64,000 nucleotides of DNA from an uncultured Verrucomicrobiae bacterium (GTDB taxonomy: Bacteria > Verrucomicrobiota > Verrucomicrobiia > Chthoniobacterales > JAFAMB01), in contig CAVXLD010000012.1 of assembly GCA_963762565.1 (NCBI GenBank), positions 416,001-480,000 on the forward strand, written 5' to 3'. Under the pieces are notes generated by a model, which searched no databases, was not told the DNA's origin, and worked only from the letters and a program-made list of their open reading frames with translations. The position numbers and the translations under genes were made by a program. Positions within the stretch are counted from its first letter, which is position 1. Every line of letters begins with the position of its first letter. Shown here in pieces: positions 1,103-34,708 of this stretch.

Positions 1103-1109
1103 AGGAAAG

Positions 1110-1830: not shown

Positions 1831-1836
1831 ACAGCT

Positions 1837-4200: not shown

Positions 4201-4222
4201 TTGAAATTCCTCTGCGTTATTC

Positions 4223-4735: not shown

Positions 4736-4758
4736 AAAAGCTCTTCGATTAGTTTCTG

Positions 4759-9094: not shown

Positions 9095-9135
9095 TCGGGC
9101 GGGTCACGTCCACCAGGGGTTTTTGTTCCCAACGC

Positions 9136-9410
9136 CCTGGAGGGGAGCCGCTTTGGCATGTGGCAGGCGAGCTCTCGATATTTGTTTCAGCGCTGAGTCC
9201 TATCAAGAAATGTCGCAACAGGCGGCTCCCAGGAATAACCCAGGGTGATGATTTATCCAACGCTGCGACTCGTTTACACCCTGCCCATAGAGCTGCGAAC
9301 CGCTCAGTCGTTCCCGGGAGCCGCCTGTTTTCGTACGTGTCGGCCGGATTAGTGTTGAGACGAAATTCGCGAGGGCGGAAAGATACGCGCCAAAGCGGCT
9401 CCCCTCCAGG
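9136..9410. repeat. Family A REPIN-like element
   Basis: Terminal IR CCTGGAGGGGAGCCGCTTTGG / CCAAAGCGGCTCCCCTCCAGG with inner IR AACAGGCGGCTCCC / GGGAGCCGCCTGTT. Confidence 0.9.
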
Positions 9411-9479
9411 CGCTGGACAATCGCGCGTCGCATCAACGCACCATGTTATTTGAGGACGAGGACGCTGGGCTGGCGCCCA

Positions 9480-13814: not shown

Positions 13815-13860
13815 CTTCAGTATCTCCAACCCGCTGCGCGGGTGCTTTTCGGCCTTGGCG

Positions 13861-13939
13861 CAGTACTCCAACACTCCGCACTCCATCACTCCGCGTGGCC
13901 GGATTCGAGGACGAGGACGACGACGATGACGAGAACGAA
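13861..13939. repeat. CACTCC-rich run + uninterrupted family F repeat (empty allele of the composite at 43182)
   Basis: CAGTACTCCAACACTCC...CCGGATTCGAGGACGAGGACGACGACGATGACGAGAACGAA aligns to 43182-43357 minus a 97 bp insert. Confidence 0.8.
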
Positions 13940-14014
13940 ACGCCTTGTGAGTGACCATGGATCCTTCATTGATCTCGTGAGATGCCGGCAAGCCGTTGGT
14001 AAAACCGAAGATAT

Positions 14015-14224: not shown

Positions 14225-14318
14225 TAAGTGACTGAAAATGAGTGCCTTACGGATGTACTTAAATTCGTGATCCTCTAAGAAACCATCTCAAAATAGGATT
14301 CAGGTTCTCAATTTGAGA
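14225..14318. promoter_or_regulatory. IHF-like site and paired palindromic enhancer (UAS) candidates
   Basis: TTTCAGTCACTTA on the minus strand (14225-14237) resembles WATCAA-N4-TTR; TCTCA-ATT-TGAGA at 14306-14318 with a partial copy TCTCA-AAA-TAGGA 20 bp away. Confidence 0.45.
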
Positions 14319-14351
14319 CCAAAAATGAAATAGCCGCAAGCAGGGCCTAAA

Positions 14352-14721
14352 GCCTCGCGCAAAGGACGCAAAGGGCGCAAGGGGGAGAGGGTGATTAGTG
14401 ATTAGTGATTAGTGATTGGTGATTGGTGGAAACCCAAATCACCGCAAGGGGAAGACAGGTGAACCGCAGATGTACGCGGATTTATTCTGATAGAGAAGCG
14501 AAGCCTAGTGGAGGTGCGAAGCGGTGAAAGGACTATCGCCTGACAGCTGCGGGATGAGTCTGCGAGTCCTGCGAAGGTAAAAAATGCAGGCCGCCTGTTC
14601 GCCACCCATTTTTGCGCGTTGTGTGCCTTCCGCCGCTACTAGGGTTTTCCACCAATCACCAATCACCAATCACCAATCACGTTCTTCTAACCTCTGCGCC
14701 CTTTGCGTCCTTTGCGCGAGC
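14352..14721. repeat. Family H nested inverted element enclosing inverted GTGATT(A/G)/CACCAAT heptamer runs
   Basis: GCCTCGCGCAAAGGACGCAAAGGGCGCA ... TGCGCCCTTTGCGTCCTTTGCGCGAG; homologs at 61597 and 62767. Confidence 0.85.
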
Positions 14722-14733
14722 CCCTTCCGCCTC

Positions 14734-15567
14734 TCACTCCGCCGCGGTCGTTGGCGCCGAGACCTGTTTCAGACCTTCCGGTGTGAATTCGCTATCGCTA
14801 AACGTGACGTTATGCTTAATCCGGGAGCCATCCAGTTCTGTGACTGAACCTTTCTTGGGATTCTGAACCGTCAGATTGGCCGGTATGGGCCGGCCTTTGT
14901 CATCGTTCGAGACACGAGTGGTGTCGATCCGCACTCTGAGCTCACCCGAAGGCAAATATTTCTCGATGCGCATCAGGACCAGGCGATTCGGATCGATCCA
15001 GGAACGCACTTTGGCGTATTCGGATTCTCCCTTGCTTGGTTTGGATTCGAGAACCGTGCAGTTGACGCCATTAACCAGGTCGGTGCCGGTTATAGTCTGG
15101 TTATCCCAAGATAATGGGTCTTCAATGACATCCAGGTAGGAGAGATCACTGCCGAAAAAAGGTTCGCGCAATTCAGAGGCGGTCAACTTCTGAGATTTAT
15201 CCGGAGGGGTGAAAAGTGTTCCACTTGCCGGGCCGCCTGCCTCTTGATGCAGAAGCACAGATTCGCCCTTTTGCGTCTGCGGCCAGAGCACTTGATAAAC
15301 CAAGTCGGTTGCCGACTTAGTTCGTCTCTCTTTGATTTGAATCTGTAACGTCTCCTCGCTCGCGTTTCCGGACGGTTTCACTTGCAACCGGAGACGCACA
15401 TAAGCATCCCCTTGCTGTTTAGCTGACACAGCCGAAGCCAAATCCTTTGGCGACAATTCAGCGGCCGATGCATCCACAAACGCCGTCAACGCCGTGAGCG
15501 CCGTCATCGCCGTGAGCTGAGTTAGCCAAGACGTCCTCCGACGCTTACAGGCATTGCAATAATTCAT
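14734..15567 (-). CDS. Outer membrane lipoprotein-sorting protein (LolA-like fold), secreted
   Basis: Signal peptide ending ASA; FFGSDLSYLD, CTVLESKP, YAKVRSWID, FSDSEFTPEGL pattern of the LolA-like family. Confidence 0.75.
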   Translation of the reverse strand: MNYCNACKRRRTSWLTQLTAMTALTALTAFVDASAAELSPKDLASAVSAKQQGDAYVRLRLQVKPSGNASEETLQIQIKERRTKSATDLVYQVLWPQTQKGESVLLHQEAGGPASGTLFTPPDKSQKLTASELREPFFGSDLSYLDVIEDPLSWDNQTITGTDLVNGVNCTVLESKPSKGESEYAKVRSWIDPNRLVLMRIEKYLPSGELRVRIDTTRVSNDDKGRPIPANLTVQNPKKGSVTELDGSRIKHNVTFSDSEFTPEGLKQVSAPTTAAE

Positions 15568-15647
15568 GTCAAACCTCCTGGATTGATTTTCTCAGTTGGC
15601 GCGACCTCGTCGTCGGCTCTCCTGAACTCCTGAACTCCTCGAACTCC

Positions 15648-16766
15648 TTAAGACCCGTGCAAGGTCTGCCCCGGCGTCACTCTTGAGCTGCGCCAGGCCG
15701 GGTACAGCCCGCTAAGCACACCGACCACGATGGCAATCGCAACGGATACCCCGAGCAGGCGAATCCCGATATCCGGCTCTAGAAGCCCGCGGACACTCGG
15801 TGCGGCTCCTATCATCCGAACGCCTACGACCCCGATCAGGACACCGACTATACCCCCAAGCAGACCCAAAATAGCTGATTCCCACAGGATCAGCTCAACG
15901 ATGCGGCTTCGTTTCCAGCCTAATGCGAGCAACACACAGATCTCCGTTGTCCGTTCGAAGACGTTCATCAACATGGTGTTCATCACGCCCAGAACGCCCA
16001 CGAGTACCGCGAGTAGAGAGGTACTCCAGCTCATCGCTCCTACAATACGAGAGACCTCGCTCTGGCTCAGATTCTCGCTGGCTACGATCGCGCGAGCTTC
16101 CGGTGTCAATTTGTCAATTTGTTCGCAAAGCTGTTGCACGTCCGCCCGGCTGGTGCCGGGAGTGAGCCGGATATCAATCACGTTGATTTTGTCTTGATCA
16201 CCGGTGATCTGCTGGAGCAATGGCAATGAAAGAATCACCGAGCCATTCTCGACCCAAGCGTTACCATCGACGATCCCAACGACTTTCAGTTCCGCGGTCT
16301 CGATTTGGATCGGATCGCCGACCTTCTTTTTAAGCACTTCGGCCGCCGTACGCCCAAGCACGACTGCCTTCTCTTGAGCATCGTCCGGCATTCTGCCAGA
16401 GATGATCTTCAGGTTCTTCCAGGTGAACCCACCCCATTCCCGAGCCGAGACCATTATCATCTCGGTATTTTCAACGCTCATGAGGTCTACCAAGATCGCA
16501 CAAGTGGCATCGACATGGGGGAGATGAGCAATCCGGTCCTGGGCCGCAGCACTGAATTCTTTCGGGACTAGCGAGCTGGTCATATTGCTGACCACGACAT
16601 CCGTCCCCCGCGCTTTCATCCCTGCCGCCCAACTTTTGTTGAGTCCGCGCGAAAGGCCCACTAGCGCGACGACTGCGGCAATTCCGATGGAAATACCTAA
16701 CAAGGTGAGAAGGGTGCGGGTTCGGCGACGGGTCAAACCCCGTATCACCACAGTCATAAAACTCAT
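15648..16766 (-). CDS. ABC transporter permease, MacB/FtsX/LolE family
   Basis: RTLLTLLGISIG, VMNTMLMNVFERTTEI, SGLYPAWRSSR. Confidence 0.9.
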   Translation of the reverse strand: MSFMTVVIRGLTRRRTRTLLTLLGISIGIAAVVALVGLSRGLNKSWAAGMKARGTDVVVSNMTSSLVPKEFSAAAQDRIAHLPHVDATCAILVDLMSVENTEMIMVSAREWGGFTWKNLKIISGRMPDDAQEKAVVLGRTAAEVLKKKVGDPIQIETAELKVVGIVDGNAWVENGSVILSLPLLQQITGDQDKINVIDIRLTPGTSRADVQQLCEQIDKLTPEARAIVASENLSQSEVSRIVGAMSWSTSLLAVLVGVLGVMNTMLMNVFERTTEICVLLALGWKRSRIVELILWESAILGLLGGIVGVLIGVVGVRMIGAAPSVRGLLEPDIGIRLLGVSVAIAIVVGVLSGLYPAWRSSRVTPGQTLHGS

Positions 16767-17515
16767 TAGTACGCTCCGTTACCTGTTTGCCGGTCCGACA
16801 CGGTCTGTCCGTCAATCATATGAATGATTCGCGACGCTCGATGGGCAATCCGGTCGTCGTGAGTGACGAGCACGAGCGTCATGTGTCGTTCCTGCTGGAT
16901 CTGGTTGAGCAAGTCGAGGATCATGGCCGTGTTGTCACTGTCCAAGTTGCCCGTCGGTTCGTCGGCGAGCAGCACAGAAGGGCTGTTGGCCAGGCTGCGG
17001 GCAATGGCTACTCGTTGTCTTTCTCCTCCCGACAATTTGTTCGGGAAGTGGTTCAGCCGGCCTTCCAGCCCAACCGCCTTCAAAAGCTCACGTGCTCGAT
17101 CCTTGCGTTTCGAGCTCGGCATCCGAGTCTCGAGCATCGGAATTTGCACGTTCTCTAATGCGGTGAAGGTCGGCAGAAGATGGAACGACTGGAAAATAAA
17201 CCCGATTTCCCGAGATCGGTAATCTGACGGATCGGATAAATCGGGGATTGATATTCCCCGGAACAATAAAGTCCCGGCGGTAGGCCGATCTAGTGCACCA
17301 AGCAGTTGAAGCAGAGTGGTTTTACCACAGCCGCTTGGACCCATGATGGCGATAAATTCTCTCTCTGGGATCTCTAGATCCAAACTTCGGAGAGCTTGAA
17401 CCGCGCCGTCATCAAAATCCTTCTTGAGCCCTGCCGCCTCAAATACGTTTGGAATTGGAGCGTCTGACATAGTGTCGACGGCCGCGGTTTCATTAGACCG
17501 AAGCGATGGCTGCAT
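16766..17515 (-). CDS. ABC transporter ATP-binding protein, LolD/MacB family (start 17515 or 17470)
   Basis: GPSGCGKT, GFIFQSFHL, LSGGERQRV, LADEPTGNLD, VTHD; stop overlaps the permease start. Confidence 0.92.
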   Translation of the reverse strand: MQPSLRSNETAAVDTMSDAPIPNVFEAAGLKKDFDDGAVQALRSLDLEIPEREFIAIMGPSGCGKTTLLQLLGALDRPTAGTLLFRGISIPDLSDPSDYRSREIGFIFQSFHLLPTFTALENVQIPMLETRMPSSKRKDRARELLKAVGLEGRLNHFPNKLSGGERQRVAIARSLANSPSVLLADEPTGNLDSDNTAMILDLLNQIQQERHMTLVLVTHDDRIAHRASRIIHMIDGQTVSDRQTGNGAY

Positions 17516-17768
17516 AAATAATTCCTGGCATCGGTGTTTTGGCCGACTTATTTCTTCCGTTATCTCAATTCGACGATCCGCTGACCTGATATTCTTCAAT
17601 CAAAAACGTAACCCCCATTGAGAGTTCGTTTTGCAGGCTTGGGCAGGTTGTAGCCTCTTGCCCCAGCCGTTGGAATCGGGCGACGAGAATAGCACGGGAT
17701 GCGTCAAGCGCGAAAAGAATTTCTTAAGCGGTCATTTGTGTCGGCCGATTGGTTGCTTTGCCCCTGAT

Positions 17769-17898
17769 GGGGGAGGGCGTGCGTCCCCGCGCGCCGCGAA
17801 CGGTCTGCATTGTGGACTTGGCCCAAGACAATTCATCGGGTCTACGCGGCCTTCGGTAACAATCCGGCGACTGCCGGACGACGACGCGATCTCTCCCC
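17769..17898. repeat. Family B REP doublet, empty (no cassette)
   Basis: GGGAGGGCGTGCGTCCCCGCGCGCCGCG ... CTTCGGTAACAATCC ... GACGCGATCTCTCCCC. Confidence 0.85.
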
Positions 17899-17919
17899 GG
17901 CGATGGGCGGGTTGTTCGT

Positions 17920-18254
17920 CCCAGCGCTCGGAGGGGAGCCGCTTTGGCGCGCATTGGGTGACCTCGCGATATTTGGTTCAGCGCTCCCTTTGCCAAAGAA
18001 TATCGCAACAGGCGGCTCCGCGAATAGCCCAGCTGCTCGCAGCTCGAGGGGCCGCGCTTAAACGAATCGAAAGTCACAGGTAAATGCATCACACTGGATT
18101 ATTTCCGGGAGCCGCTTGTTTTCACACGTTTTGCCCGGATTGGCTTTGCGGCGAAATGTGCTGGGCGGCTAGATGTGCGCCAAAGCGGCCTGCCCGACGT
18201 AGCCTCCCGAGTCTAGACGAAGGGGCGAAGTCCGCCTCTCCGCCGGGCGCTGGG
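17920..18254. repeat. Family A element whose right end is interrupted by an E-like hairpin cassette
   Basis: GGAGGGGAGCCGCTTTGG ... CCAAAGCGGC[CTGCCCGACGTAGCC...GGCGAAGTCCG]CCTCTCC. Confidence 0.85.
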
Positions 18255-18338
18255 TGATTACACGTCGCATCACCCGCCACGCTTTTCGAGGACGAGGACG
18301 AGGACGCGAACGCGGGCGATTGCCGGCGGCGAATCCCC

Positions 18339-19292
18339 TCACCGGGTCGGGGTAAGCCACTGAGAACCGACCCGGGGATCCGCTAGATTACGGAAAAGAT
18401 GCTTAAACGCGTGCCAATAGCTGGGAAACGGGGCCATCTCATCCGGATTCTTCGGTTCAAGTGCCGAAGCGAATAACGGGAGCTCGGCATGCGGAATGCC
18501 CGAGCGCCAATGATGGACGCCATGAAACGGTTCGTGTAGCAGAGTTAAAGCAACAAATTTTCCGAGTGGCCCTTTTGCGATGATACTTCGGGTTGAGCCA
18601 TTCACTGTCGACCCAGTCAGGCCGACATGTTCGATGTATTTACGCCAGCTCTGCATGTTCCCGGCCAAGACTGCCGGCGCCAGATACAACCACAAAAAAT
18701 AAACCCAAGTTTTCGTGATCGCGACAACTCCGAGAATGCAAACCCAGGCGACCCCCATCAAAAGGAATTCCTCCCAAATTTTCCGCCGAACCTTCGTGTT
18801 GCGGATAGGGGAGCCCTTTCGAAAAAAGGTGCGGACGAACAAAAATGGGGTGTAAAAGGTGCCGATGGTGAGCTCGAGAAACGCGCAGAGAATTCGGAGC
18901 CATCGGGGCGTGCCAGGGATATCGAACGGCCAGAGTTCTTCGTCTTTTTGAGTCGCCAGGTGGGCGTGATGCAGTTGGTGCGCGGCCCGGTAAAGGTTGA
19001 AGCTGGTGAAGCTCATCACGCCGATGATGACGCCGTCGATTTCGTTCAAGCGCCGGTTTTTGCGGAGCAACCCATGAGTTGCTTCGTGAAAACCGATCAA
19101 CATCCCGTGCATGAGATGGCTCACAATCAGCATCAACAGTACGCTCACCCAAATCCATCCCAGATACACCGAGAGGGTCAGCGCTGCTTCGGTCACAAAA
19201 TAAATCGCCGCTAGCAGTGGGAAAGCAGCCCGGCTTACCCAGGTTGGCTGCTCCTGTGGGGTCACGGCTTCGGTCGAAGGGGTCGTGCTCAT
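18339..19292 (-). CDS. Membrane-bound fatty acid desaturase family protein
   Basis: His boxes HEATH, HQLHH, HGVHH; TM segments; ATGA overlap with the upstream C-domain gene. Confidence 0.9.
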   Translation of the reverse strand: MSTTPSTEAVTPQEQPTWVSRAAFPLLAAIYFVTEAALTLSVYLGWIWVSVLLMLIVSHLMHGMLIGFHEATHGLLRKNRRLNEIDGVIIGVMSFTSFNLYRAAHQLHHAHLATQKDEELWPFDIPGTPRWLRILCAFLELTIGTFYTPFLFVRTFFRKGSPIRNTKVRRKIWEEFLLMGVAWVCILGVVAITKTWVYFLWLYLAPAVLAGNMQSWRKYIEHVGLTGSTVNGSTRSIIAKGPLGKFVALTLLHEPFHGVHHWRSGIPHAELPLFASALEPKNPDEMAPFPSYWHAFKHLFRNLADPRVGSQWLTPTR

Positions 19293-20653
19293 GAATCTTT
19301 GCCCGGAAAAGTGTTAATCCGACTCTCAGGGGAACGACAAGCGGCTGCCAGTATCGCCTGAAAGAGGTTAACTAGGTTTTCAATTTCTGCCAGTGGGAAC
19401 AGGTCGGGCCGGAAGAGCCACACTACCTCGAGTCCTTCATCTATCACGGTGATTTCGCAGCCGAGGTGGAATCTGGCGGTACCGGTGGACCGCATGCTAA
19501 GGGACGCAGATAATCCGTGGAGTGCCACGTCCGGCATCGGATGGTTCTGCAATGCGAAACGCACTTCGAAGATCGGGTTATGTCCCGCCCTTGGAGTTTC
19601 CCCCATAGCCGTCACCAGCTCGACAAAAGGCATGGCTTTGGCGAAACATTCCACAGTTCCTTCATGCACTTTTTTGAGATGATCCGAAAAGACCCGGTCA
19701 GGCTCTACCTGCCCGCGAATAGGAACAATACCTGCGCAGTATCCCATCGTTTCCCGGACCGCCTGGGTGCTTCGGTTAGCGACGGGCGTACCCACGAGTA
19801 CATCAGCCTCGCCTGTCCATTTAGAAAGCGCGATCTGGAACGCGGATAGCAGAGTGCTAAAAAGCGTTGCGCCGGTTATGCGAGCAAGTTCCCGCACCGC
19901 ATTGGCGAGATCGATCGGAAAATAAAAGACGCGCCGCTCCGCAGGTCCCGAGGCGGTCATTGATCCTTCAAAGGAACTCCAAAGTCTCCGGGTTCCAGCC
20001 AGATAAGATCTCCAGAACGGCGCGCGGCGTTCTATTTCAGCCGGCTGCCAATAAGAGCGTTCGGCTGTGCCCCAAGCGCTGTACGTTAACGCTACTTCCG
20101 GGAGTCGCTCCCGCGGAGAGAGGATGCCGGTTAAGTAGGCGGCGCACAAATCCTCAACGAATACCCCCAAACTCCAGCCGTCCGCGACAGCATGATGAAT
20201 AGCCAGAACCAAGACATGAGTATCCTGGCTTAGCCGCAGAACTTCCACTCGATAGAGCGGCCCTCGCACGAGCTCGAACGGCGTACGGAAAACTTCCATG
20301 GCTGCCTCTTCGACCACTTCGTCGCGGACTAGCCCGTCGGAAAGGCTCCGGTACCGGAGATTAACATCCGCGCTCGACCGGATCATCTGGAGCGGGCGCT
20401 CTTTGCCGGGCAGGATCGAAAGCCGCAGGACTTCCTGGCGTTCCATTACCCGGCGGACAGCTGACTCGCAGGTTTCCTGAGTCACCAGGCCTCGCACCCG
20501 GATCAGGCAACAGATATGATTGGCAACGTCCGCAACCGGGACCGGCGATGCTTCCCAGAGCTCTCGTTGCGGAAAGGTCAGAGGCTGCAGTTTCGCTTTT
20601 CCACTGGCCAACCAGTCCTTGAGCGCGGCGCGTTTATCTACAGACACATCCAT
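19289..20653 (-). CDS. Stand-alone NRPS-type condensation domain protein / acyltransferase
   Basis: PLTFPQRELW, HHAVADGWS (HHxxxDG), VGTPVANR, HNPIFEV; no A or T domain. Confidence 0.9.
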   Translation of the reverse strand: MDVSVDKRAALKDWLASGKAKLQPLTFPQRELWEASPVPVADVANHICCLIRVRGLVTQETCESAVRRVMERQEVLRLSILPGKERPLQMIRSSADVNLRYRSLSDGLVRDEVVEEAAMEVFRTPFELVRGPLYRVEVLRLSQDTHVLVLAIHHAVADGWSLGVFVEDLCAAYLTGILSPRERLPEVALTYSAWGTAERSYWQPAEIERRAPFWRSYLAGTRRLWSSFEGSMTASGPAERRVFYFPIDLANAVRELARITGATLFSTLLSAFQIALSKWTGEADVLVGTPVANRSTQAVRETMGYCAGIVPIRGQVEPDRVFSDHLKKVHEGTVECFAKAMPFVELVTAMGETPRAGHNPIFEVRFALQNHPMPDVALHGLSASLSMRSTGTARFHLGCEITVIDEGLEVVWLFRPDLFPLAEIENLVNLFQAILAAACRSPESRINTFPGKDS

Positions 20654-20655
20654 TG

Positions 20656-23600
20656 CTAATGAACGACATCTCTTGAATCCGAAAGTTTCTCTTCGGTGGT
20701 GTCTTCTCCTAGCAAGCCCGCAATTTCCTCATCAGATAGCGCAGTCAAATCGACTTCCTCGCTGAGCGTTTGCCCGGCCTCGCCTCGAGCGGCCGCTTTT
20801 TTCGCCGGCGTCCCGCCGCTTCGTTTTGCGCCCATGTATTCTGCGATCAGCGTGACGATTTGGCCGATCGTGCGCGCTCGAGTCAGGCTGGCCGGCGGTA
20901 GCGACACTCCCAGGGAGGCATCAAGCGTATTCTCGATCTCAACTCCCATTAACGAATCGAGCCCTAGATCCGTTAACGGCTGATCATCACGCAACGTCTC
21001 CGGTTTCACCCGCAGGACGGACGCGACGGCGTCGCGCACTGCTTGCCCGACGATGCCTTCCACTTCATCCGGCGCTGCTGATTCGATCCTTTGGCGATAA
21101 TCGCTGACCTTACCGGGGCTGTCGTTCCCTTCGATGGCCGAGAAAATACGTTCGAGTAACGGTCTTTCCTGCATGCTGCGGAAGACCTGGCGCCATTTCA
21201 CCCAATCAATCCGGATCGCCATCACTTGATCGGCATTCGCCATGAGCGAAGACTCCATCAGGTCAACCACCTCATGGGGCGAAAGTTCACCGGTTCCTTG
21301 TCTGGCGAGAAACTCAGCCACCCTTTCATTGCGGGCCACGTAACCCTCGCCACCAAGTGCTCCCCAGTTGATCACGAGAGCTGGTAAACCCAGTGCCCGG
21401 CGATGATGCGCCAAGGAATCAAGGAAAGCATTGGCCGCAGCATAATTGCCCTGCGCCGGATTTCCAAAAATGCTCGAGACAGAGGAGAACATCACAAAGC
21501 AATCGAGTTCGAGGTCACGCGTTGCTTGATGGAGTAACCAGGCTCCCCGTGCTTTAGGGGCAAGCACGCTCCGCATCCGGTCGCTGGTCAGCGCCGCTAG
21601 CGGGGCGTCGTCGATCACCATGGCCAAGTGGAAAACGCCTTTTAACGGACGATTGGCTGTCCGGACCGTCGCCATCAGCCGAGTCACGTCTTCTTCAGAT
21701 CCGGCATCCGCGCGGATCGCGGTGACGGAAACACCTCGCTCGCGAAGCCGATCCACGAACCCTTTCGCTTCCGGAGTTTCTGCGCCGCTCCGGCTGACCA
21801 GTACCAGGTCTCCTGCACCGGCTTCTACTAACCATTGGGCAACGACTTTACCGAATCCTCCGAATGCCCCCGTGATCAAATAGCTGCCCTGCGTATCGAC
21901 ATGAAATCCTGCGGTCAGCGGTTCTCCTCGTCGGGGAAGGAAGGCTTCGGGGAATGTGACCAGCACTTTGCCGATATGCTTGCCCTGAGCCATCAACCGG
22001 AAACCTGCGTCAACCCGAGCCGCCGGATAAGATCGGTATGGTAGCGGTCTAAGAGAGCCGCGCTCGATGAGATCGGAAATCTCTTCCAGCATCTGCCGGG
22101 TCAAAGATTCATCACCGGAAAATACCGCATCCATGGCCACCACATGAAAAGATGCATTCCGGCGGAGCGGCCAAAGGGGGATACGTGCGTTCTGATAGAT
22201 ATCTCGCTTCCCGATCTCGATAAATCGGCCGAACTCCGTCAGACACGAAAGTCCCATTGGAATCGCTTCGGAGGCAAGTGCATTCAGTACGACATCAACT
22301 CCGCGCCGTCCGGTGATCTGCATGACCGCATCCGCAAAATCGCCGCGACGGGAATCAATGACGTGCTTAACGCCCAATCGCTCGAGCAAGTTTCGCTTAG
22401 TTTGGCTGCCCGCCGTGGCGATTACTTTTGCTCCCAGGTAATGGGCGATCTGAATCGCCGCCATCCCAACACCGCCGGCGCCAGCGTGAACCAGGATAGA
22501 TTCTCCCGGCCGCATGCGGGCCACATTCTGCAACGCGTGCCAAGCCGTCATGAACACGACCGGCAACGTGGCGGCCTCTTCAAACGATAATTCACCGGGA
22601 ATGCGGCGCACATCGCCACCTCGGGCTAAGGTGTGGGTAGAGAGCCCAAACACTGAAAGGCCGAAGACGCGGTCACCAGGCGCAACATGATCGACGCCGG
22701 ATCCCACCGCTTTCACAATCCCGGCAACTTCGTCCCCAAAGAGCCGTGCGTCCGGCGCCTCCATCGGATACAAAGCGAGGGCTTTTAATACATCCCGGAA
22801 ATTCAGGCCGGCTGCTTTAACTTCGATGAGCACTTGGCCCGGGCCGCAATCCGGTGCGACAAAGGGTTTGAAACCGAGGGTATCAAGATGCCCGCGTTCG
22901 CGGGACTCGAGTCGCAGAGGAACTGCCGGATCGAGCCGCTCGTCAACCGACGAGCGACCGCGAACGATGCGCTGAACGTACCTGGCTTGGCCCCTGAATG
23001 CGACTTCTCGTTCCCCGTCAGTCCGCATCAATTCTTGCCAGAGGAAAGAAAAGTCAGAGGGTGACGGCTCAAATCCGAGATCGATGCCGCGGCCGGAGAA
23101 GTTCGAGTACTCATTGAGGACTACGCGGAAGAGACCAAGCAGGGGAGCTTGAGCAACATTGGGAGGGATTTCCGCCCAGCCGGCCGGCTGTGCGCCGCGA
23201 GTCACCAGATCGATGCGAAGCTTTCCCGTCGGGCCGACGACGGAGTCCAAAGCTTGGACCAAATGGAGCAACGCGTCTGTCCCCATCAATGCGGGGTCTT
23301 GTTTCGAGTCTCGATTTGCCGGTTCCGTCCAGAGATAAACGATCCGCTCGAGCGGCGCATCCTGGAAGCACTCTTGCAGTACGCTCTTCCAATCCTCAAC
23401 GGACTCGGGAGCAACCGTAAAAACTCCGGTTCCGTTGCCTGGAAAATGGTTGCCGGGTCTAACTACCCTGCAGGTTGTATCCAACTGACGGAGTTGGGTT
23501 GCGAGTAGGTCTCCCAGATCAGACGCGTCGTCGACAATCAGCCACGACTTTTCTGACGGCGCTTCTATCGAACCGTTGGGCCATGCGACCGGCGTCTCAG

Positions 23601-28356: not shown

Positions 28357-28587
28357 AATTAAGTGGGTCGCGGGCCGACTGTGCGCAGAGAGCTCCAGCG
28401 TACAGATTTCGTTTCAGCGAAGTCAATGGTGTGGTGGATTGGGTTCACTTTGCCAAACAAGAGCAAAAAGAGAACACCACATTTCGATTTCGCGAACGAA
28501 ATCGAGTTCGGATTGATTAACTATTTGTTTTTTTGACGTTTCCATTGCAGCCTGCATTCAAATTCGCCACGTAAACCTGGCTGAAGG

Positions 28588-28793
28588 CCGTGGCGCTGCC
28601 TCGCTTGCGTGGCCGTGGTAAGCAAGGAAAATTGTTTAGTCAATCCTTATCGCTGCAGCGCTCTATCTCGCGACCTCGTCCATCTTTATAAACAAAAGCG
28701 ACGGCCTGACCAAGCGACTTCCACACCGATATCCTTGCGAACCACGGCCTCGCAAGCGAGGCAGCGCTCCACGGGTGGCGACCCCCTTAGGCC
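28588..28793. repeat. Family D REP inverted doublet in the PKS/asnB divergent region
   Basis: CCGTGGCGCTGCCTCGCTTGCGTGGCCGTGGT ... ACCACGGCCTCGCAAGCGAGGCAGCGCTCCACGGGTGGCGACCCC. Confidence 0.88.
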
Positions 28794-28880
28794 CTCCGCG
28801 GACAAATCAGCTAATAGCACGAGATGCGAATTGGAAACAAATGTTTGACCGGTCCCCGATAGGCGCTGAGCCTTAATAAG

Positions 28881-30875
28881 ATGTGTGGAATTGCAGGCTT
28901 TATTGATTTGGCCGGAGGCCGTTCCCTCGGTGACGATGTCATCAAGAGGATGACACGCGCGATCATTCACCGAGGACCAGACGAGGAGGGGTATTTCCAG
29001 CGTCCGGGCCTCGCTCTGGGCTCAAGACGGTTAAGCATCGTCGGTTTGGCGGACGGTCAACAACCGGTGACGAACGAAGACCGGACGGTCCATGTGGTCT
29101 TTAATGGCGAGTTTTTTGACTTCCAGGAGCGGCGTGCTGAGCTGCAAGCCAAAGGGCATCGTTTAGTAACGCATTGCGATACCGAGATCATTCCGCACTT
29201 TTGGGAAGAAGCGCAGGAGAAGATGTTCAAGAGTTTTCAGGGCCAATTCGCCTTCGCGTTGTGGGACGATCGGCGGCGTTGTCTAGTGCTTGGTCGGGAC
29301 CGGTTTGGGATTAGCCCGCTTTATTGGACCAGACAAGGCGATTGGTTGTTCTTTGCTTCTGAAATTAAGGCCTTGCTGGCCTCCGGGATGGTTCCGGCCG
29401 AGCCTGATCTCCGAGGCATCGATCATGTTTTCACTTTCGCTGCTTTGCCCGGCCCAATTACCTGTTTCAAAGGGGTTAAATTATTACCGCCCGGTCATTA
29501 TTTAGTGATTCGGCCGGGAAACCGATCTGGAACGACTTCATCGATCAAAGAGAGTGCCTATTGGAAAATGGACTTCCCCGATCGCGGGGAAGAAGATCGG
29601 GGAGAAAACGCTAAGGCCTTGGTTGACCGGTTCGAGCAGCTCCTGCTGAACGCAGTTGAGGAACGCCTCAGAGCAGACGTACCGGTTGGTTCTTATTTGT
29701 CCGGCGGTGTCGATTCAAGTGTTATCGCGGCTCTCGCTTGTCACGTTAAAGGTCCTGCCATCAACACCTATACAGTCCGGGTCGATGCGCCCCATTTGGA
29801 TGAGCTGGACGCTGCTAACCTTGTAGCCCGCCATATCGGTACCAAACCTCCGATTGTTCAGCAATTCAGGAGCGAAGACGTGTTAAACACCTATCCGGAG
29901 TTGATCCACGCTGCGGAAGCGCCGGTCATCGACACTTCCTGCGCGGCGCTCTTACAACTGGCAGGGCGGGTTCACCGTAATAATCAAAAAGTCGTTCTTA
30001 CCGGCGAAGGAGCCGACGAATGGTTGATCGGTTATCCCTGGTATAAAGCCGCTAAGATTCTCAGTCTTCTCGATGTTATTCCTGGATTGCCACTTAGCGA
30101 CCTATTCCGTAGCGCGTATCTCGGGCTGCACCACGTACCGCAGTATCCCGCGAGCTTTCGACGCGGAGTAGAGGCTTCACTCGGCGGACCCAATGCCTGG
30201 ATCGATACTTATGGTGTCCTCGGACTGGCGAAACTAAGATTTTATGCGCCGCCGATGCGGGAGGTCCTGGCACAACACAATGCTTGGGCCGATCTGCACA
30301 TCCCCTTGGAACGAGCCAAACGATGGCACCCGTTAAACCGGGGGGTTTGGGTGGCGGCACGAGTTACTCTGGCCGGACACCTTTTGCAGGCCAAAGGAGA
30401 TCGGGTGGCGATGAATTCCTCGGTTGAAGTGCGCTACCCGTTTCTTGACGAAGACGTTTTCAACTTTTTGGCTTCGCTGGATCCGCGCTGGAAGCTTCGA
30501 GGTTTTCGCGACAAGCATCTGCTGCGCCTTTTGGCGGAACGTTGGGTGCCGCCTTCCGTGTATCGGCGCCGCAAGGTGATTTTCCGAGCTCCTTTGGACA
30601 GTTTTCAGTTGGAACCTGAACCGCCTTTTGTCAGCCAGTTAGTGAGCGAAGAATCGCTACGACGGACCGGATATTTCGACGTCGAGCAAGTCCATCATTG
30701 GCGACGAGCTTATCGTCAACTGCGCGCCGGGTCTCTAGGACGACTTTCGGTCGAATTGGGCCTGGTGGCAGTAGTCGCGACTCAGCTCTGGCATCATTTG
30801 TTTATTCGGCCTGAGCTCGCCGAGCTGCCCGTTGGAACTGCCAACGGAGTCTCTCTGGAGAAGGCGGCCCTCTAA
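28881..30875 (+). CDS. asnB: Asparagine synthetase B-like glutamine amidotransferase
   Basis: N-terminal MCGIAG, HRGPD, FNGE, SGGVDS PP-loop, LTGEGADE, EVRYPFLD. Confidence 0.92.
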   Translation: MCGIAGFIDLAGGRSLGDDVIKRMTRAIIHRGPDEEGYFQRPGLALGSRRLSIVGLADGQQPVTNEDRTVHVVFNGEFFDFQERRAELQAKGHRLVTHCDTEIIPHFWEEAQEKMFKSFQGQFAFALWDDRRRCLVLGRDRFGISPLYWTRQGDWLFFASEIKALLASGMVPAEPDLRGIDHVFTFAALPGPITCFKGVKLLPPGHYLVIRPGNRSGTTSSIKESAYWKMDFPDRGEEDRGENAKALVDRFEQLLLNAVEERLRADVPVGSYLSGGVDSSVIAALACHVKGPAINTYTVRVDAPHLDELDAANLVARHIGTKPPIVQQFRSEDVLNTYPELIHAAEAPVIDTSCAALLQLAGRVHRNNQKVVLTGEGADEWLIGYPWYKAAKILSLLDVIPGLPLSDLFRSAYLGLHHVPQYPASFRRGVEASLGGPNAWIDTYGVLGLAKLRFYAPPMREVLAQHNAWADLHIPLERAKRWHPLNRGVWVAARVTLAGHLLQAKGDRVAMNSSVEVRYPFLDEDVFNFLASLDPRWKLRGFRDKHLLRLLAERWVPPSVYRRRKVIFRAPLDSFQLEPEPPFVSQLVSEESLRRTGYFDVEQVHHWRRAYRQLRAGSLGRLSVELGLVAVVATQLWHHLFIRPELAELPVGTANGVSLEKAAL

Positions 30876-30919
30876 TGTGGCTAATCGCCTGACCTGGGCG
30901 GTTAGCAGGATTTTTTTGA

Positions 30920-32278
30920 ATGGATACAAAAAACCGATGTGCCTCCGCGGCTCAACTCTTCAAAGTCGCCCTCGCGCTTGTTGCCCTTCTCAGCGGGTGC
31001 GCGACCCCATTTAACCATGATGCCAGCGTTACGCGGAATAACGCCTTTATCGATTACTGGCCGGGGCCGAAAGACTCGGAAAATGTCCGTCTAGCGGTTA
31101 AGGACGTTATCGATCTCAAGGGCGTTGTTACTACGGCAGGTTCTGATTATTTCGAAAAGCACGGCCAGCCCGCCTCCCGCGACGCGGCCTGTATGGCGAT
31201 CGCCCGGCAACGAGGCATCAGGATCGTCGGCAAAACCAACCTCGACGAATTTGCCGTCGGGGTGACCGGGATGAATGAATATTTCGGAATCCCGAGAAAC
31301 CGGATCAGCCGATGGCGGGATCTTATTCCGGGTGGCTCATCCTCCGGGTGCGCGGTGGCAGTTCAAAGCGGTATGGCGGATGTTGGCTTTGGCACCGACA
31401 CCGCTGGATCCGTCCGAGTCCCGGCGGCTTGTTGCGGCATTGTGGGTTTAAAAACCACGTTCGGTCTGATCTCGCTACATGGCGTATTTCCCCTTGAACC
31501 TAAGCATATGGACACGGTTGGCCCGATGGGCAAAGACATCGACCACGTGGTCGAGGGCATGGATCTGCTGGAGAACGGCTTCCGTGAACGCTACGAATCT
31601 GCCATCGCAAACATGCCGGCGAGAAGAATTCGGATCGGCCGCTTATACGTGGATGGCACCGATAAAAAAATCGATCAAGCGATCGATTCCGCTCTTAGCC
31701 AGGCAGGATTTGAAGTTATTCCGTTAAGCAAAGCTTTTAAAGACAGATGGGACCAGGCCGAGAAGGACGCGACTACCGTCGCGGAGTCAGGCGCCTGGAT
31801 CAGCGATGGCCCCTATTTTTCGAAACCGGAAGTTGGCGGCAAAGTCAAAGCGGCAATCGCTTTGGGACAGATTGAATTCACGACGAACTATAAAAACGCG
31901 CTTAGCCGAGAAGCGGCTTGGCGGCGCACCCTGGGCCAGCTGTTCACGCGCGTCGATTTCATTGCTTTGCCGACCCTGAAAAAATTGCCCCCCAGGATTC
32001 CGATTATCGGCGGTAGTCCCGTGTTTGAAGCGATGGTCCTAGGTTTACAGAACACGGCCGCAGTCAACTACGCAGGGAACCCTGCTTTGGCGATGCCGGT
32101 TCCGATAAATGATAGGGAGGTCCCGGTAACCAGTCTGCAATTGATCGGGCCGCGCTTAAGTGAAGCTCGGCTTTTGAGCGCCGGTCACCTGGTCGAGGAG
32201 GCCGTCCGTCCGGCCGTCAGAAAATCGCTGGCCAGGGAATCCGGATTGTTGAGGCACCTTTGGAGGCGCAACTTGTAG
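30920..32278 (+). CDS. Amidase-signature family enzyme, predicted lipoprotein
   Basis: AVKD, GKTNLDEF, GGSSSG, GTDTAGSVRVPA; lipobox LLSGC. Confidence 0.9.
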   Translation: MDTKNRCASAAQLFKVALALVALLSGCATPFNHDASVTRNNAFIDYWPGPKDSENVRLAVKDVIDLKGVVTTAGSDYFEKHGQPASRDAACMAIARQRGIRIVGKTNLDEFAVGVTGMNEYFGIPRNRISRWRDLIPGGSSSGCAVAVQSGMADVGFGTDTAGSVRVPAACCGIVGLKTTFGLISLHGVFPLEPKHMDTVGPMGKDIDHVVEGMDLLENGFRERYESAIANMPARRIRIGRLYVDGTDKKIDQAIDSALSQAGFEVIPLSKAFKDRWDQAEKDATTVAESGAWISDGPYFSKPEVGGKVKAAIALGQIEFTTNYKNALSREAAWRRTLGQLFTRVDFIALPTLKKLPPRIPIIGGSPVFEAMVLGLQNTAAVNYAGNPALAMPVPINDREVPVTSLQLIGPRLSEARLLSAGHLVEEAVRPAVRKSLARESGLLRHLWRRNL

Positions 32279-32455
32279 GCGAAACGGCGCACCGGCGAAA
32301 GGGCGAAAGGGCGACAAGGCGCGACAACCGAGGGCCTATCATCGCTTCCAAGAAACTCGGCTTGCTCTCATGACTTGATTCGTCACATCGATTGATCGCG
32401 CCCTTTCGCCCATTCGCCCTTTCGCCGGTGCGCCGGTGCGCCCATTCGCCGTCGC
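32278..32455. repeat. Inverted octamer runs (GGCGAAAG/GGCGCACC vs CTTTCGCC/CATTCGCC) between the amidases
   Basis: Direct reading; similar runs at 36231-36632, 52060-52100 and 58120-58165. Confidence 0.8.
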
Positions 32456-32505
32456 GCAAGAATATATGGCTCTCCGCTGGTGCTTCGTGCTAAGAGCTTT
32501 GCCCG

Positions 32506-33798
32506 ATGAAACTACACCAGCGTTTGGAAGCTCCTGTGCTTGTGCTCGGCCTGTCGTTGGCCCTCTGGCTAAGCGGTTGCACCATTCCTGAGCGGCGATC
32601 CGCTTCCGGTAGTCATCATCATGACTTCATCGATTATTGGCCGGTCCCAAAGAACGACCAAGAGATTGTCTTGGCCGTTAAAGACAACATCGACGTCAAA
32701 GGCGTGGTTACCAGCGCCGGATCTGAATACGTTTCCAAGACGGCGTCACCTGCGACCGAGGACGCGGCTTGTTTAGCCATAGCCCGGGCGCGGGGTGTGC
32801 GGATCATTGGGAAAACCAATCTCAGCGAATTCGCAGTGGCGCCTTCCGGTGTGAACGAGTATTTCGGCACTCCGAGGAATCCTTTCAGTAAGTTGCACAA
32901 GATTATTCCGGGAGGTTCCTCCAGTGGTTCGGCTGCGTCAGTCGATAGTGGGCTTGCTGACATTGCGTTCGGGACCGATACCGCAGGTTCTGTTCGTGTA
33001 CCGGCCGCTTGCCAGGGGATTGTAGGATTGAAAACCACCTTCGGTTTAGTCCCCTTGCGCGGCGTATTCCCAGTCGAACCTAAACATCTGGACACGGTCG
33101 GTCCTATGGGAAAAGACATCGCCCACGTCGTGATGGGGATGGATCTTTTGGAGAAAGGCTTTGCTGACAAGTACAACACGGCTGTCGGGAAAAAGCCGTC
33201 AGGCAAACAAATCAGAATTGGCAGGCTCTATCTAAGCGGGACCGATCCGAAAATCGATAAAGCGATCGATGACGCTCTCGTCCGAGCGCAATTTCAAGTT
33301 GTACGGCTGGGTCCAGCTTTTAAGGTGAAATGGGACCAAGCTAAGAATGATGGGAACACCATGGCCGCCGCCGGCGCGTGGATTAGCGAACAACAATATG
33401 TCTTACAATGGGGAGTCCGGACTAGAACCAGGGCCATCATCCTTCTCGGCAGACTGCTTTATCCTGGCCCTTATCGACAGGCTTTGGCACGGCGAGCGGC
33501 CTGGGAGCATGTTCTGCGCGAAGAATTCAAGAAAGTGGACTTCATTGCTTTACCGACCCTACAGGTAATCCCGCCACCCATCCCCTGGCTTGGCGGGAGC
33601 GCTTTCCTGGAGGCTCAGGTTTTGAACATACAAAACACGGTAGCGGTAAACTACGCGGGTAATCCGGCACTGGCGGTACCGATTCCGGTCGGCCACGAAC
33701 ATTTTCCAGTCACAAGCCTGCAATTGGTCGGGCCCCGATTAAGCGAAGCGCAACTCTTGAACGCAGGCCGGATTGTTGAGGCTAGTTCGGAAAGATAG
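32506..33798 (+). CDS. Amidase-signature family enzyme, predicted lipoprotein (paralog of the previous gene)
   Basis: AVKDNID, GGSSSGS, GTDTAGSVRVPA, shared EPKHxDTVGPMGKDI; lipobox WLSGC. Confidence 0.9.
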   Translation: MKLHQRLEAPVLVLGLSLALWLSGCTIPERRSASGSHHHDFIDYWPVPKNDQEIVLAVKDNIDVKGVVTSAGSEYVSKTASPATEDAACLAIARARGVRIIGKTNLSEFAVAPSGVNEYFGTPRNPFSKLHKIIPGGSSSGSAASVDSGLADIAFGTDTAGSVRVPAACQGIVGLKTTFGLVPLRGVFPVEPKHLDTVGPMGKDIAHVVMGMDLLEKGFADKYNTAVGKKPSGKQIRIGRLYLSGTDPKIDKAIDDALVRAQFQVVRLGPAFKVKWDQAKNDGNTMAAAGAWISEQQYVLQWGVRTRTRAIILLGRLLYPGPYRQALARRAAWEHVLREEFKKVDFIALPTLQVIPPPIPWLGGSAFLEAQVLNIQNTVAVNYAGNPALAVPIPVGHEHFPVTSLQLVGPRLSEAQLLNAGRIVEASSER

Positions 33799-33943
33799 AG
33801 ACCGATCGGCGGCAACCTCCCAGGCGGAGGGGGGGTGAGATTTCAAGTTGCCGATCGTTTTTCAGCTGTTAAGATACGCTGTTATCCCAGCTGGCAGCGG
33901 TCCCTTCTTGGGCTTTGTAAGCGTCACTGGATTTTTGCGAACT

Positions 33944-34708
33944 ATGAAGGCTGTGTTACTCCGCTCGATCCCTGTAATATCAGGGCTGCTCTTGACTGTA
34001 GGCTCTTTGCGAGCCGAAACGGTGGATGCTCTGATCACCGAAGGAGACTTTTATTACGCGAAGTTAGAAGCTGATCAGTCGCTCAAATACTATTTGCCGG
34101 CGGAAAAGCTCGAACCCAACAACGTGCGCTTACTAGTGCACATATCCCGCGAATATCGTCATTTAATGATCGATGCCACGAGCCAGTCGGAGAAGGTTCG
34201 TCTCGGAAGTACCGCGGTCGACTACGCCAAACGGGCAACTGCTATTGCCCCCAAAGATCCGGATGCACAACTAGCCATAGCTATTAGCTATGGAGAACTC
34301 CAGCCGTTTCAAGGCTACCATCAAAGATTTGATGCTGTCCATGTCATCAAGGATGCTGCCGACAGGGTGATTGAATTGGATCCACATAATGACCTGGGCT
34401 GGCACGTTTTAGGTCGCTGGTATCAAGGCCTGGCTGAGGTCGATCCCGTTCATCGGGTGCTGGCGCAGGCGCTCGGTGGCCTACCCCCTGCTACTTATCA
34501 AGAGGCGGCCACTTGTTTCGAAAAGGCGATAGAGCTCAATCCGAACCGCCTGATGCATTACGTCGCTCTAGGCACCGTCTATATAGAGATGGGCAAAAAA
34601 GAGGAAGGCTGCCGCCTGATCCAAAAAGGCCTTGCCATGCAGAACACCGAAAAGGACGACCCGGACGTCAAGCGCCAGGGCGAAGAGGTGTTGGCAAAGA
34701 ACCGGTAG
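33944..34708 (+). CDS. Secreted TPR-repeat protein
   Basis: Signal peptide MKAVLLRS...SLRA; TPR-like helices (FEKAIELNPN, YVALGTVY). Confidence 0.75.
   Translation: MKAVLLRSIPVISGLLLTVGSLRAETVDALITEGDFYYAKLEADQSLKYYLPAEKLEPNNVRLLVHISREYRHLMIDATSQSEKVRLGSTAVDYAKRATAIAPKDPDAQLAIAISYGELQPFQGYHQRFDAVHVIKDAADRVIELDPHNDLGWHVLGRWYQGLAEVDPVHRVLAQALGGLPPATYQEAATCFEKAIELNPNRLMHYVALGTVYIEMGKKEEGCRLIQKGLAMQNTEKDDPDVKRQGEEVLAKNR

Follow-up and report, generated by a model that had tools for sequence, protein, structure and literature searches.

Polyketide-derived envelope lipids are made and trafficked by several described systems. In the mycobacterial loci for phthiocerol dimycocerosate (PDIM) and sulfolipid, a polyketide synthase (PKS; Mas or Pks2) is combined with PapA acyltransferases, DrrABC or MmpL transporters and the carrier LppX. 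Here we compare these systems with a group of ten genes at positions 14734–34708 of a 64,000-nucleotide stretch (the window) of an uncultured Verrucomicrobiae bacterium (assembly GCA_963762565.1, contig CAVXLD010000012.1, positions 416,001–480,000). Like the mycobacterial loci, the window encodes a fully reducing lipid-type PKS that lacks a thioesterase (TE), a condensation-fold enzyme with an HHxxxD motif that would release the chain, and a dedicated ATP-binding cassette (ABC) transporter with a putative periplasmic lipid carrier of LolA-like fold. It differs in having a condensation (C) domain of the nonribosomal peptide synthetase (NRPS) type in place of PapA, a C-methyltransferase (cMT) with a malonyl-type acyltransferase (AT) in place of methylmalonyl-CoA, and a transporter of the MacB/LolE type. 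There is no FadD loader or MmpL protein here, the asnB, amidase, tetratricopeptide repeat (TPR) and desaturase genes are without counterpart there, and the host is a diderm verrucomicrobium. A first-pass annotation of this DNA had drawn the analogy to PDIM loci; it stands for the PKS, whose best match among solved structures is mycocerosic acid synthase (MAS; 1029 bits), and fails for the C domain, which is not PapA5-like.

Parts of the locus also resemble systems outside mycobacteria. The free C domains of enacyloxin (Bamb_5915) and zeamine biosynthesis and VibH are, as here, discrete proteins that take a carrier-bound acyl group, and they are described as docking through a short C-terminal motif of the carrier and condensing the acyl group with a free amine or alcohol (PMC9113145, PMC5811116). 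A conserved tail motif also follows the acyl carrier protein (ACP) domain here, and the C domain is partnered with one iterative-type PKS instead of an assembly line. Aryl-polyene and flexirubin clusters likewise pair a polyketide-like lipid pathway with its own LolA-like chaperone and transporter, and a gene table proposes that ApeL, ApeM and ApeN place the lipid in the outer membrane (PMC8253772). They use a synthase resembling type II fatty acid synthases, a resistance-nodulation-division (RND) transporter and a LolB-like partner, whereas the cluster described here combines a type I PKS with an ABC transporter of the MacB type and lacks a LolB-like gene. With the LolCDE–LolA lipoprotein-sorting system and the LolA3 paralogue of Bacteroidota the locus shares a LolD-like ATPase, the MacB/LolC/E permease architecture and the LolA superfamily fold, but it has one permease gene where they have two, scores under the Lol cut-offs and encodes a carrier of PF17131 rather than PF03548. 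LolA3 itself is characterized in one account as having no known function and not pairing with LolB (PMC13103446). Export of heterocyst glycolipid by DevBCA couples a PKS-derived envelope lipid, as is predicted here, to a MacB-family exporter; a DevB membrane-fusion protein and a TolC partner are absent from the cluster, which has a LolA-like carrier instead. Finally, TsnB9-type hydroxyamidotransferases are described as using ATP to activate the free carboxylate of a polyketide or aryl acid and taking nitrogen from a glutamine derivative (PMC13418202). The closest solved relative of the AsnB protein encoded here is a hydroxyamidotransferase, presumably of this type; since no TsnB6/7-like amidooxygenase partners are in the cluster, a plain amide would be expected as product in place of a hydroxamate. 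We found no published description of the cluster in the full-text literature searched, which excludes subscription journals, and the biosynthetic clusters named in the relevant part of a study of Udaeobacter metagenome-assembled genomes are of the terpene, aryl-polyene, ladderane and phosphonate types only (PMC7343977). The locus appears to be an uncharacterised PKS-lipid export system related to known ones.

We consider it an even call that these genes form a conserved biosynthesis-and-trafficking cluster of about 20 kb for an envelope lipid in soil Verrucomicrobiota. Its products probably make a methyl-branched fatty chain, link it to a partner and move it into the cell envelope. The host genome belongs to a soil member of the order Chthoniobacterales, the loci nearest to it in the species-genome collection all carry the label Verrucomicrobiota (most of them Chthoniobacterales), and the stretch is present in soil metagenome runs from several studies. 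Linkage was assessed in the best 80 of 343 related stretches found in 185,579 species genomes; these loci come from related, not independent, organisms, labelled Chthoniobacterales, Chthoniobacter, Udaeobacter, Pedosphaera, Prosthecobacter, Luteolibacter and Akkermansiaceae, and partly overlap with the same-family loci considered below. Counting evaluable loci, the PKS gene lies directly upstream of the C gene in 77 of 78 and the desaturase gene directly downstream in 74 of 74. Downstream of the C gene, the ATPase gene is present in 64 of 73, the permease gene in 61 of 72 and the LolA-like gene in 57 of 69, and asnB is in the locus in 49 of 54. No other gene family recurs widely in the flanks. 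The co-occurrence of the PKS, C and desaturase genes with the Lol-like, asnB and amidase genes in relatives had been named beforehand as a point on which the cluster would stand or fall, and the cluster survived across several verrucomicrobial orders.

Gene order is kept most closely within the family. Sixteen loci have the order LolA-like gene, permease, ATPase, desaturase, C, PKS and divergent asnB, amidase(s) and TPR gene as far as the contig reaches; the exceptions are L029 and L030, in which 3.8–4.2 kb past the desaturase gene contain no ABC genes. Elsewhere the amidase and TPR genes vary in position and remain linked. In L055, asnB, the TPR gene and an amidase gene come after the LolA-like gene, in five loci (L086, L092, L093, L100 and L108) an amidase gene follows the LolA-like gene on the other strand, and in four (L062, L065, L066 and L080) the TPR gene directly adjoins asnB in reversed orientation. 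Comparison of contig coordinates places an amidase gene no more than about 1.5 kb from where the extracted locus ends in four of five distant genomes. All nine families occur together in a genome of another family, in which the C domain is 52% identical and the amidase, TPR and asnB genes diverge from those for the PKS, C domain, desaturase, ATPase, permease and LolA-like protein.

The C-domain, asnB and LolA-like orthologues also share a phyletic distribution. A C-domain orthologue is present in 20 of 61 related genomes, the host included, and an asnB orthologue of at least 76% identity in 19, of which 17 belong to the C-domain set; the other genomes have paralogues of 30–41% identity or none. 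The two asnB-bearing genomes in which no C-domain orthologue was found are both fragmented drafts. LolA-like orthologues occur in 18 of the 61 genomes (16 in the C-domain set) and amidase orthologues in 23 (18 in that set). In the 24 genomes that represent other families of the order, no orthologue of the C-domain, asnB or LolA-like gene occurs. In two low-contig relatives a cluster gene is in pieces with internal stop codons, the C-domain gene in one (G017:C8:266663-267995) and asnB in the other (G009:C6:66-2050), reflecting either decay of the cluster or errors of sequencing or assembly.

Some loci carry additional genes. An insert of about 7 kb separates the ATPase and permease genes in L050, L051, L061 and L068, two of which are labelled Chthoniobacter (e.g. 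L061:6309-13553), and in L051, L061 and L068 it pushes the LolA-like gene beyond the flank, which accounts for three loci in which that gene was missed. Besides an open reading frame (ORF) without Pfam match, the insert encodes a patatin-like phospholipase of 1302 aa and an alpha/beta hydrolase resembling PGAP1. The PGAP1-like hydrolase occurs in 9 of the 80 loci, at varied positions in or next to the cluster, and patatin in 4, and such recurrent lipase genes fit a lipid product. A separate family of Pfam-less ORFs, 268–383 aa as called, is found in L063, L064, L070, L081, L099 and L103 (e.g. L070:12396-13196), directly after the desaturase gene in five of them and about 7 kb downstream in L063; in L064 its first ~80 residues resemble the N-terminus of the ATPase. 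Because all six loci are without a full ABC/LolA-like module, this family may be an alternative partner.

Pfam confirms the domain order that the first-pass annotation had given for the PKS, and the lack of a TE: ketosynthase (KS; residues 4–380), AT (544–846), dehydratase (DH; 909–1180), cMT (1388–1557), enoylreductase (ER; 1838–2133), ketoreductase (KR; 2157–2334) and ACP (2438–2504). This is the TE-less single module of MAS-like enzymes, KS-AT-DH-ER-KR-ACP, with an extra cMT between DH and ER, and the Pks2 NCBIfam model matches at 1232 bits. Motifs are intact in the KS (Cys177 and His), AT (GHSVGE), DH (HKVENLVVFP and HPVLFDGALH), cMT (LEVGAGTGG, the S-adenosylmethionine (SAM) motif), ER (HAGAGGVG), KR (GAFGGFG and Tyr) and ACP (DSL). 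The AT carries GHSVGE and an HPFH-type motif, not the GHSQG and YASH of methylmalonyl-specific domains; we take these motifs to reflect extender specificity, and by them the AT looks malonyl-specific. Given a malonyl-type AT and a cMT, methyl branches would therefore be SAM-derived. A loading module or fatty acyl-AMP ligase was not found among the window ORFs scanned, and no further family recurs in related loci, which is compatible with iterative use of the PKS on a long-chain acyl starter. The C-terminal tail after the ACP has the motif ..(V/I)(D/N)L.A(L/I)(S/T)....I..LL, largely kept in eight orthologues, with L, A, I and LL invariant. Across the 80 loci, labelled as several orders, the PKS is 62–81% identical.

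The protein encoded next to the PKS gene matches the Condensation family PF00668 over its full length (residues 21–448; 212 bits, cut-off 30.6), and the HHxxxDG motif, HHAVADG in this protein, is invariant as HHA(V/I)ADG in 11 orthologues. A sequence profile search of the Protein Data Bank (PDB) gave 58 matches at E ≤ 1e-3, the best being Txo2 (1.9e-51), followed by TycC and Txo1. Those with a telling title are all C, E or Cy domains of NRPS or PKS–NRPS enzymes, and no PapA5 or VibH chain is among them, on the assumption that these structures were in the copy searched. The likeness to PapA5 that had been envisaged is therefore not borne out, and by sequence this is a canonical NRPS-type C domain. 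In a search of representative proteins the best 150 matches are all giant NRPSs of 3573–7929 aa, which score by their summed C domains. Public metagenomes hold 2067 matches at E ≤ 1e-40 among 8000 candidates scored, and none of the 120 of these relatives that were listed has a specific name, all being unnamed or generically named. An AlphaFold2 (AF2) model built with 11 close orthologues has a mean predicted local distance difference test (pLDDT) score of 57, too poor for a reading of the acceptor pocket. Unlike the free C domains described above, the protein has a conserved N-terminal helix of about 20 residues and no beta-hairpin docking domain; this helix and the PKS tail motif look like a docking pair. 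An A-PCP module (adenylation domain plus peptidyl carrier protein) that could present a carrier-bound acceptor was also sought; no AMP-binding domain or second carrier domain is encoded in the window ORFs scanned, and none recurs across most of the 80 loci.

The desaturase (PF00487) has the three His boxes of its family (HxxxH, HxxHH and HxxHH) as HEATH, HQLHH and HGVHH. It has no match among PDB sequences at E ≤ 0.01 and falls only in generic 'fatty acid desaturase' clusters in the ESM Atlas. For the ATPase, relatives align only from residue 12–52 onward and ATG codons lie at 17515 and 17470; the true start is therefore probably one of these, the annotated TTG being too far upstream. The ATPase scores 238.8 bits against the LolD model TIGR02211 (cut-off 307.75) and 190 bits, again below cut-off, against a DevA subfamily model; the permease scores 52.2 bits against NCBIfam lolCE (cut-off 362.45), and DevC is below cut-off as well. 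Judged by these models, the two proteins appear most like LolD and LolC/E and yet stay under every Lol equivalog cut-off.

The carrier matches PF17131 (93 bits, cut-off 30) and not PF03548. Its AF2 model (pLDDT 80.5) has as best Foldseek matches 4z48, 3bk5 and 9tp6, the last being LolA3 of Porphyromonas gingivalis, with template modelling (TM) scores of 0.73–0.74 normalised to the query and 0.83–0.86 normalised to the target (0.81–0.86 over the DUF1329 and LolA-superfamily structures and LolA3 as a whole), whereas canonical LolA reaches only 0.36–0.40 (query-normalised). The modelled protein fits the larger, 13-strand fold of the LolA superfamily. A canonical LolA (PF03548) is encoded on another contig of the host genome, and the carrier of the cluster is therefore an extra one. 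A housekeeping Lol system was considered for the module and rejected in view of this second LolA and the scores under the cut-offs. The LolA/LolDE-like export proposed in the first-pass annotation holds insofar as LolA_like, MacB_PCD/FtsX and ABC ATPase proteins are all present, and needs amending in that the carrier is of the LolA3/PF17131 type and the Lol scores fall short. Both the LolA-like and the TPR protein have N-terminal signal peptides, the latter if translation starts, as is likely from its sequence, at Met33 (near 33944).

The AsnB protein is a member of its family by Pfam, as had been called, with an MCGIAG N-terminus that provides the Cys nucleophile, a YLSGGVDSS PP-loop and a score of 407 bits against TIGR01536 (cut-off 267). 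It is 30% identical to Escherichia coli AsnB, with two large insertions in a MAFFT alignment of nine cluster proteins and the E. coli enzyme. The TTIR (TTxR) segment of E. coli AsnB, which we take to be its aspartate-binding site, is not kept, being aligned to DT-- and then SC, an alignment that is uncertain at 30% identity. The best PDB match corrects the earlier call: it is the hydroxyamidotransferase 7ylz (1.2e-49, aligned mainly over residues 1–390), presumably TsnB9 or a near relative of it. In the host genome, which is 93.7% complete and also encodes AsnRS and GatB, the cluster asnB alone matches PF00733 (Asn_synthase), so that asparagine supply is tied either to this gene or to a tRNA-dependent route. 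The two lipoprotein amidases proposed earlier both carry an L-S-G-C lipobox and, as PF01425 members (213 and 209 bits), share Lys61/59, GSVR and GGSSSG, which we take to be the Lys/cis-Ser/Ser motifs of the amidase signature. They are generic members of this family and paralogues of each other, identical at 251 of 453 aligned positions, and their nearest solved relatives, namely GatA, allophanate and biuret hydrolases and FAAH, mostly hydrolyse primary or fatty amides.

We hypothesize the following pathway. Observed directly are the genes present, the intactness of their catalytic motifs, the export signals of their products, their synteny and their co-occurrence among genomes. The MAS-like PKS would extend an acyl starter from primary metabolism, or build the chain iteratively, with malonyl units, full reduction and SAM-derived alpha-methyl branches. 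The free C domain would dock on the conserved acidic tail after the ACP and release the chain onto a free amine or hydroxyl, not a carrier-bound one, and the translationally coupled membrane di-iron enzyme may desaturate or hydroxylate the product. The cluster-specific AsnB-type amidotransferase would adenylate a free carboxylate and convert it to a primary amide, neutralising the lipid, and on the periplasmic side the two lipoprotein amidases would hydrolyse that amide. The MacB/LolE-type transporter would extract the lipid from the inner membrane and pass it to the LolA3-type carrier for delivery to the outer membrane, with the secreted TPR protein as a putative partner. Precedents can be named for two of these features: Bamb_5915 as a free C domain that is described as condensing a carrier-bound acyl group with a free amine (PMC9113145), and the aryl-polyene lipid cluster with its LolA-like chaperone and transporter (PMC8253772). 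Relative to the interpretation offered in the first-pass annotation, the methyl-branched, modified acyl chain, off-loading by the C domain and Lol-like export are retained, the genes co-occurring even when rearranged, and the PapA5 likeness is dropped.

Several points weigh against an envelope-lipid pathway of this kind. Its chemistry is wholly inferred, at every step. NRPS-type C domains normally use a carrier-bound aminoacyl acceptor, and with no A domain or PCP in the scanned window ORFs, or recurring in the 80 loci, the acceptor is a guess. Since asnB is the only PF00733 gene, AsnRS is encoded and TIGR01536 is passed, the gene may simply make asparagine; it is also not adjacent in 5 of 54 loci. 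To our knowledge, flipping of substrates across the inner membrane is not an activity of MacB-type transporters, and the cluster encodes no flippase. The masking and unmasking of an amide is our own construction, for which we found no direct precedent. The distribution is patchy: among 400 other genomes sampled evenly over the phylum, each at least 90% complete, three have an orthologue, all from one genus and at 51–52% identity. In addition, G049, a 100%-complete genome among the 24 that represent other families, has an amidase orthologue without the cluster. About nine loci with enough flank, or one in eight, lack export genes downstream, and in five such genomes, of which the completeness is not known, no LolA-like orthologue was found anywhere at E ≤ 1e-20; export by the ABC/LolA-like route is therefore not obligatory. 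A still more specific proposal, that soil Verrucomicrobiota, including lineages labelled Candidatus Udaeobacter, have a new class of methyl-branched N- or O-acyl outer-membrane lipid, with a charge mask set in the cytoplasm by a TsnB9-like AsnB to allow passage over the inner membrane, unmasking by the amidases and delivery by MacB-type and LolA3-type proteins, is speculative and, taken as a whole, distinctly improbable.

Other readings of the same genes deserve comparison with the envelope lipid. The product could be a secreted specialised metabolite (a lipo-amide antibiotic, surfactant or signal) rather than a structural lipid, with the ABC proteins as an efflux or self-protection pump and the amidases activating or detoxifying it. 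The patchiness just described (3 of 400 genomes phylum-wide, 20 of 61 relatives) and the export module that some genomes dispense with would suit such a compound; MacB-type pumps export antibiotics and toxins, and prodrug pathways such as colibactin with ClbP unmask their product in the periplasm after export. We nonetheless think this unlikely. Neither a membrane-fusion protein nor a gene of the TolC type is recurrent in the cluster; in their place stands a carrier of LolA fold, the hydrophobic groove of which, in the model, points to retention in the envelope. In addition, PKS identity of 62–81% over 80 loci is high for a secondary-metabolite cluster, and small Udaeobacter-labelled genomes (~3 Mb) keep the genes. 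Alternatively, AsnB could be a true asparagine synthetase whose free L-Asn is the acceptor of the C domain, giving an N-acyl-asparagine lipid, like the N-acyl-D-Asn prodrug motif, that the amidases deamidate or deacylate in the periplasm. The passed TIGR01536 model, the N-terminal Cys, the intact PP-loop, its standing as the sole Asn_synthase gene of the genome and the near-confinement of asnB orthologues of at least 76% identity to C-domain genomes (17 of 19) all agree with it. This proposal seems quite unlikely to us in view of the 30% identity to E. coli AsnB with two large insertions and no TTIR segment, and of the better match to the hydroxyamidotransferase 7ylz; we also know of no C domain of this clade that accepts a free amino acid.

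It is also conceivable that the neighbours do not form one pathway, and that a lipid or metabolite made by the PKS, C domain and desaturase is encoded, in an inherited gene order, beside a second lipoprotein sorter (the ABC and LolA-like proteins, serving for example the amidases) and a housekeeping asnB. The amidases are indeed lipoproteins, the closest resemblance of the ATPase and permease is to LolD and LolC/E, some loci are without the ABC/LolA module or asnB, and the related genomes are kin, so that counts overstate the independent support. Against this, the linkage outlasts several rearrangements and extends across orders, flanks beyond the LolA-like and TPR genes are not kept outside the genus, the asnB, LolA-like and C-domain orthologue groups have one phyletic pattern, and one genome (G028) retains the amidase though no LolA-like orthologue was found there. 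We regard this reading as very unlikely.

The layout of the locus is given in Table 1. The ORF list and Pfam searches on each gene bear out the coordinates and domains reported for the ten genes in the first-pass annotation, as well as the tight spacing of the biosynthetic genes: ORF coordinates give a gap of 2 nt between the PKS and C genes and an overlap of 4 nt between the C and desaturase genes. One base is shared between the genes for the ATPase and the permease. As had been stated, no A domain, TE or phosphopantetheinyl transferase (PPTase) is encoded in the 38 window ORFs scanned, a set that, outside the cluster, comprises ORFs of at least 180 aa; the host genome has two PPTase (ACPS) matches, both on other contigs.

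Table 1. Genes and intergenic features of the cluster, in window coordinates
Feature	Position	Strand	Evidence
LolA-like periplasmic carrier, PF17131/LolA3/DUF1329 type, signal peptide	14734..15567	-	Pfam LolA_like, 93 bits
MacB/LolE-type ABC permease, one gene	15648..16766	-	Pfam MacB_PCD and FtsX
ABC ATPase, LolD/MacB/DevA-like	16766..17599	-	Pfam ABC_tran
Dispersed ~270-nt MITE-like repeat between desaturase and ATPase genes	17920..18189	.	Own-genome matches, 17-nt inverted ends
Membrane di-iron fatty-acid desaturase/hydroxylase family protein	18339..19292	-	Pfam FA_desaturase, 104 bits
Free-standing NRPS-type condensation domain	19289..20653	-	Pfam Condensation, 212 bits
Single-module type I PKS, 2566 aa	20656..28356	-	Pfam domain order
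Divergent PKS–asnB intergenic region with repeated element	28357..28880	.	Contig depth in soil DNA run
AsnB-family glutamine-dependent amidotransferase	28881..30875	+	Pfam GATase_7 and Asn_synthase
Amidase-signature lipoprotein 1	30920..32278	+	Pfam Amidase, 213 bits; lipobox LSGC
Amidase-signature lipoprotein 2	32506..33798	+	Pfam Amidase, 209 bits; lipobox LSGC
Secreted TPR protein	33848..34708	+	Pfam TPR families and RMD1-3

Between the desaturase and ATPase genes lies a 739-nt gap that had been described as mostly repeats. This is right in substance: a search of the whole genome with the gap gave 108 matches, and gap positions 161–713 are matched at about 100 other places. Repeat finders confined to the window found almost nothing there. 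At least eight near-full copies, 81–91% identical, exist in the genome of an element of about 270 nt (17920–18189) that has 17-nt inverted arms at 17938–17954 and 18173–18189 and is flanked on either side by further repeated pieces. It looks like a dispersed repeat inserted in the host genome, resembling miniature inverted-repeat transposable elements (MITEs) or repetitive extragenic palindromic (REP) sequences. The element is also found at about 9117–9464 and 1–164 of the window and sits in intergenic regions. In same-family relatives the desaturase–ATPase gap is far shorter, the tblastn matches lying tens to a few hundred nt apart and overlapping in one locus. A second repeated element (28625–28785), between the PKS gene and asnB, shows many alternative joints in a soil DNA run, in which the summed contig depth is 595 in the bin 28727–29393 and about 10 on the flanks.

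A scan of 14300–18500 for promoters and terminators found promoter-like sites at chance level (2, with 2.0 expected), and no plausible hidden ORF for a carrier protein was seen in the intergenic gaps, which were judged by eye without an HMM scan. Contigs from soil metatranscriptomes (libraries X19 and X20, two studies) match five of the genes in part, namely those for the LolA-like protein, permease, ATPase, PKS and TPR protein, at 90–99% likeness and a depth of 2–5. DNA carry-over is possible, and contigs cannot show transcripts or operon structure; they are at most a weak hint of transcription of the cluster genes. No such contigs cover the C-domain and desaturase bins, which is not evidence of silence.

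Two pairs of mutually inverted tandem arrays, both of which would form long hairpins, lie within or beside the cluster. Between the two amidase genes, GGCGAAAG at 32278–32324 is opposed to CGCCCTTT at 32399–32457; downstream of the LolA-like gene, CGCAAAGGA with GTGATTA at 14358–14428 is opposed to CACCAAT with CCTTTGCGC at 14650–14717. The single Rfam match in 14000–35500, MIR1858 (49.7 bits, gathering threshold 137), falls on the octamer-repeat hairpin at 32265–32450 and was taken as spurious. A gene of the class A beta-lactamase family (12948–13991) adjoins the LolA-like gene; it occupies the same place only in the same-genus loci L022 and L023 and marks the cluster boundary. Farther away, at 191–5634, lies a gene set of the CO-dehydrogenase/xanthine-dehydrogenase type (AAA ATPase, CoxG, molybdopterin large subunit and FAD-binding subunit).

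The Verrucomicrobiota rank with the most abundant bacteria of soil, and next to nothing is known about their envelope lipids. Identification of the product of this cluster would provide a new lipid biomarker for these organisms and a second example, outside mycobacteria, of the release of a PKS lipid by a condensation-fold enzyme. The combination of an amidotransferase in the cytoplasm and amidases in the periplasm is a hint of a trafficking or activation step as yet undescribed for lipids. If the proposed pathway is true, the orphan LolA3/PF17131 family would gain its first cargo, a lipid rather than a lipoprotein.

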